From NCBI RefSeq assembly GCF_003334405.1, contig NZ_QOWM01000001.1: a stretch of DNA of 64,000 nt; one strand, written 5' to 3'. The stretch comes from Escherichia coli. GTDB lineage: Bacteria > Pseudomonadota > Gammaproteobacteria > Enterobacterales > Enterobacteriaceae. Under the pieces are notes generated by a model that saw nothing but the letters and a program-made list of their open reading frames with translations, was not told where the DNA came from and did not search any database. The position numbers and the translations under genes are program-made. Each line of letters opens with the position of its first letter. Positions within the stretch are counted from its first letter, which is position 1. Of the stretch, positions 188 to 10,371 are shown piece after piece.

Positions 188-205
188 TTCTTACAGTTGT
201 AAGAA
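188..205. promoter_or_regulatory. Candidate EvgA box: perfect 18-bp palindrome TTCTTACA-GT-TGTAAGAA upstream of frc
   Basis: Sequence read directly; matches the EvgA-box consensus as I recall it (inverted TTCPyTACA half-sites, 2-bp spacer). About 250 bp upstream of the frc start codon. Confidence 0.5.
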
Positions 206-1760: not shown

Positions 1761-3455
1761 ATGTCAGATCAACTTCAAATGACAGATGGTATGCATATCA
1801 TCGTTGAAGCATTAAAACAGAATAATATTGACACTATTTATGGTGTTGTAGGTATTCCTGTGACGGATATGGCACGCCATGCCCAGGCGGAAGGCATTCG
1901 TTATATTGGTTTTCGTCATGAGCAGTCGGCAGGCTATGCCGCTGCGGCAAGCGGTTTTCTTACCCAAAAACCGGGGATCTGCCTGACAGTTTCTGCGCCA
2001 GGATTCCTCAATGGTTTGACCGCATTGGCCAACGCAACGGTAAATGGTTTTCCGATGATCATGATTAGCGGCTCCAGCGACCGCGCGATCGTCGACCTAC
2101 AGCAAGGTGATTATGAAGAGCTGGACCAAATGAATGCGGCAAAACCGTATGCCAAAGCAGCATTTCGCGTTAATCAGCCGCAGGATCTTGGCATTGCATT
2201 GGCACGCGCTATCCGGGTCTCTGTATCGGGTCGCCCTGGCGGAGTTTATCTTGATTTGCCAGCAAATGTCCTGGCCGCGACGATGGAAAAAGACGAAGCG
2301 TTAACCACGATTGTTAAAGTTGAAAATCCGTCGCCAGCATTATTGCCATGCCCGAAGTCAGTCACTAGCGCAATTTCGCTTTTAGCAAAAGCTGAACGGC
2401 CATTAATTATCCTTGGCAAAGGCGCGGCGTATTCACAAGCTGATGAACAGCTTCGTGAATTTATTGAAAGTGCTCAGATTCCATTCCTGCCAATGTCTAT
2501 GGCGAAAGGGATCCTTGAAGATACGCATCCACTTTCTGCGGCAGCTGCGCGTTCGTTTGCCCTGGCAAATGCTGACGTTGTCATGCTTGTTGGTGCACGA
2601 CTGAATTGGTTATTGGCACACGGTAAAAAAGGATGGGCGGCAGATACACAGTTTATTCAACTGGATATTGAACCGCAGGAAATTGACAGCAACCGCCCCA
2701 TTGCTGTGCCAGTCGTTGGTGATATTGCATCCAGTATGCAAGGTATGCTGGCAGAACTGAAACAAAACACATTTACGACTCCACTGGTATGGCGCGATAT
2801 TTTAAATATCCACAAGCAGCAAAATGCACAAAAAATGCATGAAAAATTAAGTACAGATACTCAACCATTAAATTACTTTAATGCATTAAGTGCTGTGCGC
2901 GACGTATTGCGCGAGAACCAGGATATTTATTTAGTTAATGAAGGTGCAAATACCCTGGATAATGCACGAAATATTATTGATATGTATAAACCACGTCGTC
3001 GTCTGGATTGTGGTACCTGGGGTGTCATGGGCATCGGTATGGGCTATGCCATCGGTGCTAGCGTGACTTCTGGTTCTCCGGTTGTCGCCATTGAAGGTGA
3101 TAGTGCTTTTGGTTTCAGTGGGATGGAAATTGAAACGATTTGTCGATATAACCTGCCGGTGACGATCGTTATTTTTAATAATGGCGGCATCTACAGAGGA
3201 GACGGTGTTGATCTCAGTGGCGCTGGTGCACCATCACCAACGGATCTGTTGCACCATGCAAGGTATGACAAATTAATGGATGCGTTTCGTGGCGTTGGCT
3301 ATAACGTCACCACGACAGATGAACTTCGTCATGCTTTAACCACCGGTATTCAGTCGCGCAAACCGACCATTATTAATGTGGTCATCGACCCTGCAGCAGG
3401 AACTGAAAGTGGCCATATTACCAAACTTAACCCAAAACAAGTCGCTGGTAATTAA
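1761..3455 (+). CDS. oxc: Oxalyl-CoA decarboxylase (thiamine-diphosphate dependent)
   Basis: 564-aa ORF with ThDP-binding motif (GDSAFGFSGMEIETICRYNLPVTIVIFNNGG); synteny with frc. Confidence 0.93.
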   Translation: MSDQLQMTDGMHIIVEALKQNNIDTIYGVVGIPVTDMARHAQAEGIRYIGFRHEQSAGYAAAASGFLTQKPGICLTVSAPGFLNGLTALANATVNGFPMIMISGSSDRAIVDLQQGDYEELDQMNAAKPYAKAAFRVNQPQDLGIALARAIRVSVSGRPGGVYLDLPANVLAATMEKDEALTTIVKVENPSPALLPCPKSVTSAISLLAKAERPLIILGKGAAYSQADEQLREFIESAQIPFLPMSMAKGILEDTHPLSAAAARSFALANADVVMLVGARLNWLLAHGKKGWAADTQFIQLDIEPQEIDSNRPIAVPVVGDIASSMQGMLAELKQNTFTTPLVWRDILNIHKQQNAQKMHEKLSTDTQPLNYFNALSAVRDVLRENQDIYLVNEGANTLDNARNIIDMYKPRRRLDCGTWGVMGIGMGYAIGASVTSGSPVVAIEGDSAFGFSGMEIETICRYNLPVTIVIFNNGGIYRGDGVDLSGAGAPSPTDLLHHARYDKLMDAFRGVGYNVTTTDELRHALTTGIQSRKPTIINVVIDPAAGTESGHITKLNPKQVAGN

Positions 3456-3524: not shown

Positions 3525-4469
3525 ATGCTAACATTTTTTATTGGCGATTTATTGCCTATTATCGTAATCATGCTGTTGGGTTATTTTAGCGGCAGACGAG
3601 AAACATTTTCAGAAGATCAAGCTCGGGCATTTAATAAACTGGTATTAAACTACGCGCTTCCTGCGGCTCTATTTGTATCTATTACTCGGGCAAACAGGGA
3701 AATGATTTTTGCGGACACTCGTCTGACCCTTGTATCACTTGTGGTTATTGTCGGATGTTTCTTTTTCTCCTGGTTCGGTTGCTACAAATTTTTTAAACGT
3801 ACCCATGCAGAAGCAGCTGTATGTGCATTAATTGCAGGTTCACCTACCATTGGATTCCTGGGGTTTGCAGTTCTCGATCCTATTTATGGTGATTCCGTAT
3901 CAACAGGTTTAGTGGTAGCAATTATTTCTATTATTGTTAACGCAATTACTATTCCTATTGGTCTGTATTTGCTGAATCCTTCTTCAGGAGCGGATGGTAA
4001 GAAGAATAGTAATCTGAGCGCATTAATTTCTGCGGCAAAGGAGCCAGTAGTATGGGCACCTGTTCTGGCAACGATCCTGGTGTTGGTTGGGGTAAAAATT
4101 CCGGCAGCATGGGACCCAACCTTTAATCTGATTGCGAAGGCTAACTCAGGGGTAGCGGTATTCGCTGCGGGGTTGACTCTGGCTGCACATAAATTCGAGT
4201 TCAGTGCCGAAATTGCTTATAACACCTTCCTGAAGCTGATTCTGATGCCACTGGCACTGCTTCTCGTTGGTATGGCATGTCATTTGAACAGCGAACATCT
4301 GCAGATGATGGTACTGGCAGGCGCATTACCGCCGGCATTCTCCGGAATCATTATTGCCAGCCGGTTTAATGTCTACACCCGTACTGGTACAGCGTCATTG
4401 GCTGTGAGCGTACTGGGCTTTGTCGTCACGGCTCCCTTGTGGATTTATGTCAGTCGACTGGTTTCATAA
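3525..4469 (+). CDS. yfdV: AEC-family membrane transporter YfdV
   Basis: 314-aa hydrophobic ORF; position between oxc and yfdE as in K-12. Confidence 0.85.
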
Positions 4470-4497: not shown

Positions 4498-4528
4498 GCC
4501 GAAGTGTCTTTTCACCTTCGGCTTTTTT
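4498..4528 (+). terminator. Rho-independent terminator-like hairpin (GCCGAAG...CTTCGGC + T6) between yfdV and yfdE
   Basis: 7-bp GC-rich stem, 11-nt loop, then TTTTTT, read directly. Confidence 0.5.
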
Positions 4529-4542
4529 CAAGGCATAAGCAA

Positions 4543-5688
4543 ATGACAAATAATGAAAGCAAAGGGCCGTTTGAAGGCTTATTAGTTATCGATATGACAC
4601 ATGTCCTTAATGGACCTTTCGGAACTCAACTTCTTTGTAATATGGGCGCAAGGGTAATTAAAGTTGAGCCGCCGGGTCATGGTGATGATACCCGCACATT
4701 TGGTCCCTATGTGGATGGACAGTCACTCTATTACAGTTTTATTAATCATGGCAAAGAGAGTGTGGTTCTTGATTTAAAGAATGATCACGATAAAAGTATA
4801 TTTATAAATATGCTCAAACAAGCTGATGTATTAGCTGAGAATTTTCGCCCAGGTACAATGGAAAAACTGGGGTTTTCATGGGAAACGCTTCAAGAAATCA
4901 ACCCGCGCCTCATATATGCTTCATCGTCAGGTTTCGGACATACCGGTCCGCTAAAAGATGCTCCTGCCTACGATACCATCATTCAGGCAATGAGCGGGAT
5001 AATGATGGAAACAGGATATCCTGATGCTCCGCCAGTGCGCGTTGGTACATCTCTTGCGGATCTATGCGGCGGTGTCTATTTATTCAGCGGAATAGTGAGT
5101 GCACTTTATGGCCGCGAAAAGAGCCAGAGAGGGGCGCATGTCGATATAGCGATGTTTGATGCCACGCTGAGTTTTCTGGAGCATGGTCTGATGGCATATA
5201 TCGCAACTGGGAAGTCACCACAACGTCTGGGAAATCGCCATCCCTACATGGCACCTTTTGATGTTTTCAATACTCAGGATAAGCCGATTACGATTTGTTG
5301 TGGTAATGACAAGCTTTTTTCTGCGTTATGCCAGGCACTGGAGCTTACGGAACTGGTTAATGATCCCCGATTTAGCAGCAATATTTTACGCGTACAAAAC
5401 CAGGCTATTCTTAAACAATATATTGAGCGGACGTTAAAAACGCAGGCAGCTGAAGTTTGGTTAGCCAGAATACATGAAGTTGGTGTACCCGTCGCGCCGT
5501 TATTAAGTGTGGCTGAGGCCATTAAATTGCCACAAACTCAGGCGAGAAATATGTTGATTGAAGCCGGGGGAATAATGATGCCGGGTAATCCGATAAAAAT
5601 CAGCGGCTGCGCGGACCCGCATGTTATGCCGGGAGCGGCAACGCTCGACCAGCATGGGGAACAAATTCGCCAGGAGTTCTCATCATAA
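4543..5688 (+). CDS. yfdE: Acetyl-CoA:oxalate CoA-transferase (family III CoA-transferase) YfdE
   Basis: ORF track gives 394 aa from 4504; I place the start at the internal ATG 4543 (MTNNESKGPFEGLLVIDMTH, 381 aa), just after the terminator hairpin. Paralogous to frc. Confidence 0.85.
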   Translation: MTNNESKGPFEGLLVIDMTHVLNGPFGTQLLCNMGARVIKVEPPGHGDDTRTFGPYVDGQSLYYSFINHGKESVVLDLKNDHDKSIFINMLKQADVLAENFRPGTMEKLGFSWETLQEINPRLIYASSSGFGHTGPLKDAPAYDTIIQAMSGIMMETGYPDAPPVRVGTSLADLCGGVYLFSGIVSALYGREKSQRGAHVDIAMFDATLSFLEHGLMAYIATGKSPQRLGNRHPYMAPFDVFNTQDKPITICCGNDKLFSALCQALELTELVNDPRFSSNILRVQNQAILKQYIERTLKTQAAEVWLARIHEVGVPVAPLLSVAEAIKLPQTQARNMLIEAGGIMMPGNPIKISGCADPHVMPGAATLDQHGEQIRQEFSS

Positions 5689-9341: not shown

Positions 9342-9956
9342 TTAGCCGATTTTGTTACGTTGTGCGAATGTGTAAAGATCCATCAGTGATTTACATTCTA
9401 ATTTTTCCATCAGGCGACTTTTATAAGTGCTGACAGTTTTGTTGCTGATGAACATTTTTTCAGCAATGTCATTATTATCCTTGCCATCAAGAATATACCG
9501 CATGACACTAATTTCTTGTTTCGATAAGGAGTCGAGTTTTTGCTGGTCGGACGTTAAACTTCCAACAAACCGGTTGAGAGAGAAGGGGAAATAGCAGTAG
9601 CCATTTTTTGCAGCTTCAATAGCCGCAATGATATTGTTCATGCCTTCTTTTTTACTCACGAAACCATTAGCGCCAGCATCAGCACAATGTTTCCCGTAAA
9701 AATGGTCATTTTTAGCGGAGACGATAATAATAATTCCGCTATATTGGCGCTTCCTCAGCGTTTCTAACACCTGGATACCGTTAACTCCGGGGATATCGAC
9801 ATCAATGATGACGATATCAGGCTTAAGTGTTTCCACCCGCTGAACGGCACTTCCGCCTTCAGTCAACTCTGCTAAGATTTCAATATCGTTTTTGATCAAT
9901 AAATTACGAATTGCTGCGATAGCAAGAGGATGGTCATCAATAATTATTGCGTTCAT
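9342..9956 (-). CDS. evgA: Response regulator EvgA (NarL/FixJ family)
   Basis: 204-aa ORF MNAIIIDDHPLAIAAIRNLL with receiver and LuxR-type HTH; 4 bp upstream of evgS. Confidence 0.95.
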   Translation of the reverse strand: MNAIIIDDHPLAIAAIRNLLIKNDIEILAELTEGGSAVQRVETLKPDIVIIDVDIPGVNGIQVLETLRKRQYSGIIIIVSAKNDHFYGKHCADAGANGFVSKKEGMNNIIAAIEAAKNGYCYFPFSLNRFVGSLTSDQQKLDSLSKQEISVMRYILDGKDNNDIAEKMFISNKTVSTYKSRLMEKLECKSLMDLYTFAQRNKIG

Positions 9957-10180
9957 AGATTATTCCCTTTGCAATGAAGCATCTCCCTTCTCCCTGTAGT
10001 AATACAGACATAAGGCGTCATCTCATTTTCTCAATAAAAATAAGAAAATCTGAGCTTCCTTTAAGATAATTCGACAAGTATACCATATAAATAGTCGGCA
10101 TAAATGAAATGTCAACAATAAAATCAGGGATTGTACCGATGATTTATAGTTTCAAGTTGGCACTATAAGTCTTCTTACTA

Positions 10181-10198
10181 ATCCTACAGGCGTAAGAA
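10181..10198. promoter_or_regulatory. Candidate EvgA box (ATCCTACA-GG-CGTAAGAA) in the evgA/emrK divergent promoter region
   Basis: Near-palindrome read directly with one mismatch per half-site to the consensus; an additional TTCTTAC half-site lies at 10173-10179. Confidence 0.45.
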
Positions 10199-10371
10199 TT
10201 GTATTGCAAAAGCCACGGTTTAGTCCTCTGTTGTTTTTTTTGCACCTCATTTAAATTAGGCCTCCAACGTTCCTGGGATAATGTGCAACACATGCACTGT
10301 GTTTGATATGAAGAATGAATGCTCTTTTCATTCAATTCATAAATTTCATCTATGAGAAATGAGAGATAATA

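Follow-up and report, generated by a model that had tools for sequence, protein, structure and literature searches.

The perfect 18-bp inverted repeat at positions 188–205 of the DNA analysed here is very likely the high-affinity operator through which the response regulator EvgA acts on the frc-oxc-yfdV-yfdE promoter in Escherichia coli K-12, with EvgA binding before frc stated in a paper that cites Masuda & Church 2003 and reportedly supported by Itou et al. 2009. The site is functional and its assignment to EvgA is already known, and it is not a new link between acid and oxalate. Indeed, an initial annotation of this DNA had presented the repeat as joining acid-resistance signalling to oxalate and formyl-CoA metabolism, and in this it was right, although the connection is established in the literature. 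What is possibly new is one thing only, namely a second, position-fixed element that is common to EvgA promoters.

The locus and its genes

By ‘the window’ we mean the whole stretch of E. coli DNA that was analysed, 64,000 nt in length. It is K-12 DNA: its first 460 nt are 100% identical to the yfdX–frc intergenic region of E. coli K-12 MG1655 (the K-12 coordinate is 2,493,711 minus the window position), a region that 5,407 of 5,426 complete E. coli genomes carry. Gene identities are based on NCBIfam scores above curated cut-offs together with the K-12 annotation, both of which agree with the naming frc-oxc-yfdV-yfdE that had been proposed for the genes following the box:

457–1707, + strand: frc (yfdW), formyl-CoA transferase, which opens the controlled unit (TIGR03253, 784.6 bits, cut-off 504)
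1761–3455, + strand: oxc (yfdU), oxalyl-CoA decarboxylase (NF006721, 1068 bits, cut-off 557)
3525–4469, + strand: yfdV, putative transporter (NF007384, 714 bits, cut-off 404)
4543–5688, + strand: yfdE, acetyl-CoA:oxalate CoA-transferase (NF008511, 884 bits; function from PMC3720670)
5744–9337, − strand: evgS, acid-sensing hybrid histidine kinase, convergent with yfdE (NF007420, 2882 bits, cut-off 1995)
9342–9956, − strand: evgA, NarL/FixJ-type response regulator (NF007419, 437.9 bits, cut-off 251)

The oxalyl-CoA decarboxylase also matches TIGR03254 above its cut-off. For yfdE, the mechanical ORF runs from a GTG at 4504 (394 aa), the annotated start is at 4543, the K-12 annotation has a 1146-nt gene, and the NF008511 match begins at residue 14. 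The window thus holds a frc-oxc oxalate/formyl-CoA module in which transferase and decarboxylase are encoded together, with the YfdV and YfdE genes adjacent. Directly beyond yfdE and convergent with it, just where the initial annotation had put them, come evgS and evgA, the genes of the cognate kinase and regulator, both of them intact and scoring above equivalog cut-offs; emrK and emrY lie beyond evgA on the + strand.

Insertion sequences are found at this locus in several genomes. In DA33133, an IS1A element sits in the yfdX–frc spacer upstream of the box (L049 ~250–1020, corresponding to window ~50–60), as it does in at least eight other genomes, an arrangement that uncouples frc from yfdX and keeps the box with frc. 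An IS903B element interrupts the frc coding sequence itself in AH04 (L050 1409–2377) and, by the hit table, in AH02 and CT01 as well. Farther along the window, a tRNA gene at 17116–17187 (− strand, 63 bits) is the sole Rfam match in the whole stretch, and is presumably argW, beside the CPS-53 prophage on the K-12 map.

The box at 188–205

188–205, no strand assigned: EvgA box, perfect inverted repeat TTCTTACA-GT-TGTAAGAA, putative primary EvgA dimer site of the frc promoter (consensus match, arm conservation, PMC3720670)

The box reads TTCTTACAGTTGTAAGAA. Its two 8-nt arms, TTCTTACA and TGTAAGAA, form a perfect inverted repeat separated by the dinucleotide GT, a spacer that is itself non-palindromic, and the whole repeat lies in the yfdX–frc intergenic region, with 251 nt between it and the downstream frc ATG. 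Across the 64 kb it is the only exact (0-mismatch) match to the EvgA consensus TTCYTACA-N2-TGTARGAA (TTCYTACANNTGTARGAA), which we checked against the boxes of yfdX, safA, ydeP, yegR and emrK, and such an exact match was seen in 0 of 100 dinucleotide-preserving shuffles, giving an expectation of 0. The initial description of a perfect inverted repeat that matches the EvgA consensus and stands upstream of frc therefore holds in both its parts. When up to three mismatches are allowed, the window contains two matches against 0.79 expected, a number that alone is not significant, and perfect 8-2-8 palindromes are not rare per se, the window having three where 0.9 ± 1.1 are expected. What is non-random about 188–205 is its match to the EvgA consensus and its position, not its palindromy.

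Two of the three perfect 8-2-8 palindromes of the window fall within 66 bp of one another, at 140–157 and at 188–205. The former, TACGCTTT-AA-AAAGCGTA, lies 31 bp before the EvgA box, and we considered it as a conserved operator in its own right; however, it has decayed in L018, a divergent Escherichia genome (see below), as well as in the alleles of O157, FAH, S37 and EPEC E2348/69, and because it is not conserved there it is probably no operator.

The box is also covered by a mechanical ORF, 124–321, which we tried and rejected as a small protein. Three alleles (FAH, S37 and EPEC E2348/69) have an in-frame stop at its codon 10, its variable sites are spread over the codon positions 5:7:5 with no bias, and no gene is annotated at this place in K-12 or in the RefSeq genomes that we examined. 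The ORF is not a gene, which bears out the early remark that it is probably not real.

Conservation of the box

For comparison we picked seven E. coli spacer alleles that span 85–100% identity and added L018, a divergent Escherichia genome, ~89% identical in the spacer, which came from a genome-collection scan for the exact box. The 18-bp box and the next 16 bp are invariant in all seven E. coli alleles, and three of the nine nucleotides just upstream vary. In L018, both arms of the frc box are intact and its spacer has gone from GT to GC; compared with K-12, the 48 nt preceding the box are 71% identical, the box itself 94%, the stretch from there to +115 91% and the remaining leader 78%. The proximal yfdX box of the same genome has both of its spacer bases changed (AC to GT), and its arms differ only at one position that was already mismatched to the consensus. 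Constrained arms around a free spacer are the very pattern that a dimeric helix-turn-helix operator predicts, and, to judge from these alleles, the box arms are under purifying selection and the spacer is free to vary.

The exact-box scan, run on a species-representative collection, found a single Escherichia genome together with 38 unrelated matches, where by our own estimate ~17 chance sites would be expected. About a dozen gut Clostridia MAGs (L010, L013, L015, L016, L024, L025, L028, L030, L031, L035, L041 and L042) have an identical palindrome, TTCTTACA-RY-TGTAAGAA, with common flanks (for example, L013 2801–2818 and L042 9884–9901). Here the palindrome fills the spacer between TTGAC and TATAAT, beside a divergent gene for a 67–74 aa HTH protein that is XRE-type by eye (L013 2554–2778, L042 9642–9845), and it is probably the operator of this adjoining HTH repressor, unrelated to EvgA.

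Sister boxes and published control by EvgA

The same box, with one to three mismatches, is found upstream of yfdX (two copies), safA, ydeP, yegR and evgA/emrK, all of them operons that we take to be direct EvgA targets, and among the sites examined the frc box is the only one free of mismatches. Itou, Eguchi and Utsumi reportedly gave the motif its name, ‘EvgA box’, in 2009, in work that is said to support direct EvgA binding at frc. Among our locus extracts (L001 for yfdX, L002 for safA and ydeP, L003 for yegR), the first two hold more such boxes than shuffles predict: the yfdX locus has four matches against 0.17 expected, and the locus of safA and ydeP has three against 0.14. Within the window there is one further box:

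10181–10198, no strand assigned: second box, ATCCTACAGGCGTAAGAA, two mismatches, in the divergent evgA/emrK intergenic region

Close by, the K-12 annotation includes evgL, a 9-codon leader peptide gene at window 9953–9982 (− strand), which overlaps the start of evgA and is positioned between evgA and the EvgA box common to evgA/emrK.

The literature has a good deal to say about these promoters. According to Mullins et al. 2013 (PMC3720670), the yfdXWUVE genes are activated by EvgA, and the legend to Fig. 2, citing Masuda & Church 2003, assigns EvgA-bound inverted repeats both to yfdX and to yfdWUVE, upstream in each case. Nothing substantive differs between 188–205 and the EvgA box of Masuda & Church 2003, since both are the same 8-2-8 repeat, in the same place before frc/yfdW and for the same regulator, and 188–205 is free of consensus mismatches. 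In Johnson et al. 2014 (PMC4283999), an evgS-constitutive mutant shows induction of frc and oxc, with the highest fold increase for frc, and EvgA sites are confined to genes already known as EvgA-regulated; a perfect box at frc fits well with frc being the most induced gene. In addition, other papers put the yfd operon under EvgA control (PMC6128205), count emrK as a direct EvgA target (PMC5706723, PMC8174306) and use the yfdX promoter, as one that EvgA controls directly, to report EvgS activity, citing Itou et al. 2009 (PMC5706723). The proposal that EvgA directly controls frc-oxc-yfdV-yfdE, made in the initial annotation, is accordingly supported by what PMC3720670 (citing Masuda & Church 2003) and PMC4283999 say. 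Our search of the literature for a genome-wide EvgA binding dataset (ChIP-exo, ChIP-seq, DAP-seq or SELEX) found none, and the Reg-Seq preprint mentions EvgA merely in passing.

Predicted promoter geometry and a second element

Six EvgA-target promoters (frc, yfdX, safA, ydeP, yegR and emrK) were aligned on the box, and two features of the frc promoter stand out:

230–237, + strand: second conserved element cTCTGATT (consensus a.TC.tATT), +25 to +32 from the box end, at or overlapping the predicted −35; function putative
254–262, + strand: candidate −10, TATCAT at 254–259 (17-nt spacer from TCTGAT) with overlapping CATATT at 257–262

The core of the second element, TC-Y-K-A-T-T, is at exactly +26 to +32 in all six promoters (in emrK the element lies at window 10223–10230), and the seven columns hold 6.2 bits against 3.2 ± 0.4 in random registers, a value that 0 of 1,999 controls reached. 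A CA at +9/+10 from the box is likewise common to the six. CTCTCTGATTACC does not change among the frc alleles, while sites to its left and to its right do, and L018 has TCCGATT. Moreover, −10-like hexamers are found at +48 to +59 from the box in six of six promoters. On this evidence, the −35 of the frc promoter would be TCTGAT at 231–236 and transcription would begin at ~266–270, leaving some 190 nt of 5′ UTR, and with the start site so predicted, the intergenic position of the frc site and its promoter geometry are like those of the five other EvgA promoters. A sigma-70 consensus promoter scan called none downstream of the box, which is readily explained by the poor −35 of an activator-dependent promoter.

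What might the second element be? It is strongly conserved in position, and it could equally be a shared feature of the −35 region. When a PWM built from 14 primary half-sites was run along the promoters, the best scores outside the box were at +25 (z 3.5) and +3 (z 3.0), values that are modest given the many offsets tested and a hypothesis partly formed after seeing the data; both peaks have the left-arm orientation only, and no right-arm partners were seen. Read in this way, the element may represent phased secondary EvgA contacts.

A model for such an arrangement exists in Bordetella, where BvgS/BvgA are homologues of EvgS/EvgA. The NarL/FixJ-type BvgA binds a high-affinity upstream inverted repeat, and further dimers occupy sites of lower affinity as far as the −35, in steps of about two helical turns, some 21–22 bp. 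EvgA promoters may resemble BvgA promoters such as that of fhaB, in that weak half-site-like elements appear at +3 and +25, the latter ending at or overlapping the predicted −35, but they are unlike them in that the half-sites are left-arm only, without right-arm partners, and the statistical support is modest. A stronger form of the idea would be that EvgA promoters share a fixed three-part architecture, made up of the box, the CA at +9/+10 and TC-Y-K-A-T-T at +26 to +32, abutting or overlapping the −35, in which the two extra parts are weak half-sites cooperatively occupied as in the case of BvgA. We hold this to be unlikely; if it were true, the perfect primary site of frc would explain why frc is induced most strongly. 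The literature that we searched, with the primary EvgA promoter studies outside its scope, contained no description of a second element of EvgA promoters.

Does frc have its own promoter?

1–33, + strand: yfdX terminator-like hairpin, 13-bp stem then AAATTATTT, from a terminator scan, between yfdX and the frc promoter

The alternative that fares best accepts that the frc box is functional, and proposes that frc-oxc-yfdVE is nonetheless expressed mostly by read-through from the EvgA-dependent yfdX promoter, as one yfdXWUVE operon, with the box as a booster or a redundant internal site. There is something to be said for this. The unit is often written yfdXWUVE in papers (PMC3720670 and PMC6128205), yfdX owns a pair of EvgA boxes, and the T-tract after the hairpin at 1–33 is weak and interrupted, so that termination may be leaky. 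However, the hairpin itself is strong, with an RNA fold of −16.9 kcal/mol (z −4.9), and it is kept by compensatory change, since in the avian strain Jnd12 an A>G in one arm is accompanied by a T>C in the other; in L018 only loop bases are changed. PMC3720670 also separates yfdX from yfdWUVE and assigns to each an inverted repeat of its own, and the best EvgA site is that of frc, just as the most induced gene in PMC4283999 is frc and not yfdX. Strains with an IS1 between yfdX and the box retain an intact box and frc. Finally, conservation is higher in the promoter-like block that follows the box than in the remaining spacer: positions 248–320, which would comprise the candidate −10 and the first ~55 nt of the predicted leader, are nearly invariant across alleles and are 93% identical in L018, against 78% for the rest of the leader. 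Taken together, it is quite improbable that read-through accounts for most frc expression, while it probably contributes to it, and we argue from the hairpin, the separate repeat and the conserved promoter block that frc has an EvgA-dependent promoter of its own.

The leader that would follow from such a promoter was considered as a structured leader or riboswitch and rejected, as the fold of the predicted 5′ UTR is no stronger than those of shuffled sequences (z −1.2) and no Rfam family matches the frc leader. A short ORF, 288–335 (MQKGIGSGDEMIFST), is also found inside the block at 248–320, without an obvious ribosome-binding site.

Other readings of the palindrome

Could the palindrome belong to another NarL/FixJ regulator, such as RcsB, GadE, NarL, UhpA or FimZ, and look EvgA-like through family resemblance? 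EvgA does share its DNA-binding domain family with others (FimZ, NarL, UhpA and RcsB are weaker profile matches), and proteins of the NarL/FixJ family do bind short inverted repeats. NarL, for example, binds 7-2-7 heptamer sites. These resemble the EvgA box in the protein family that reads them, in their two short inverted arms and in their uninformative 2-bp spacer, but differ from it in the sequence and length of the arms, in responding to nitrate rather than acid, and in their regulon. Against any such regulator, the 18-bp pattern recurs at an EvgA-specific set of targets, frc responds to EvgS activation (PMC4283999) and the published assignment is to EvgA (PMC3720670), so that we give this idea next to no credence.

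It is just as hard to credit that the palindrome is due to chance, or is an RNA or DNA hairpin without a protein partner, since, even though perfect 8-2-8 palindromes arise about once per 64 kb, another one lies just upstream at 140–157 and 188–205 can form a 7-bp stem as RNA, an exact match to the 16-position consensus is unexpected by shuffles, the arms are conserved while the 140–157 palindrome decays in other alleles, and the RNA hairpin, which we rejected, is weak (−6 kcal/mol, z −1.8, with 11 of 200 shuffles folding as well) and would lie upstream of the predicted start site.

How the site would work, and what it means

With EvgA as the regulator, the steps at this promoter can be proposed as follows. 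Mildly acidic pH would cause EvgS, encoded ~5.5 kb downstream, to phosphorylate EvgA, and an EvgA dimer would then use its NarL/FixJ-type helix-turn-helix domains to bind both 8-nt arms. Bound EvgA, centred ~70–75 bp upstream of the start, would recruit sigma-70 RNA polymerase to a promoter whose −35 (TCTGAT, 231–236) is poor and whose −10 lies at about 254–262, and the output would be a long-leader mRNA for formyl-CoA transferase, oxalyl-CoA decarboxylase, the transporter and a priming CoA-transferase. In this scheme we infer the precise −35, −10 and start site, the class of activation by distance, and such secondary contacts as EvgA may make.

In biological terms, the site is the molecular link from acid sensing by EvgS/EvgA to the oxalate/formyl-CoA decarboxylation pathway, a pathway that contributes to the acid tolerance of E. 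coli. The link between acid sensing and oxalate has been in the literature since 2002–2003 and is routinely used. The second element, if it is real, would refine our picture of how EvgA activates its promoters, and could improve prediction of the EvgA regulon.
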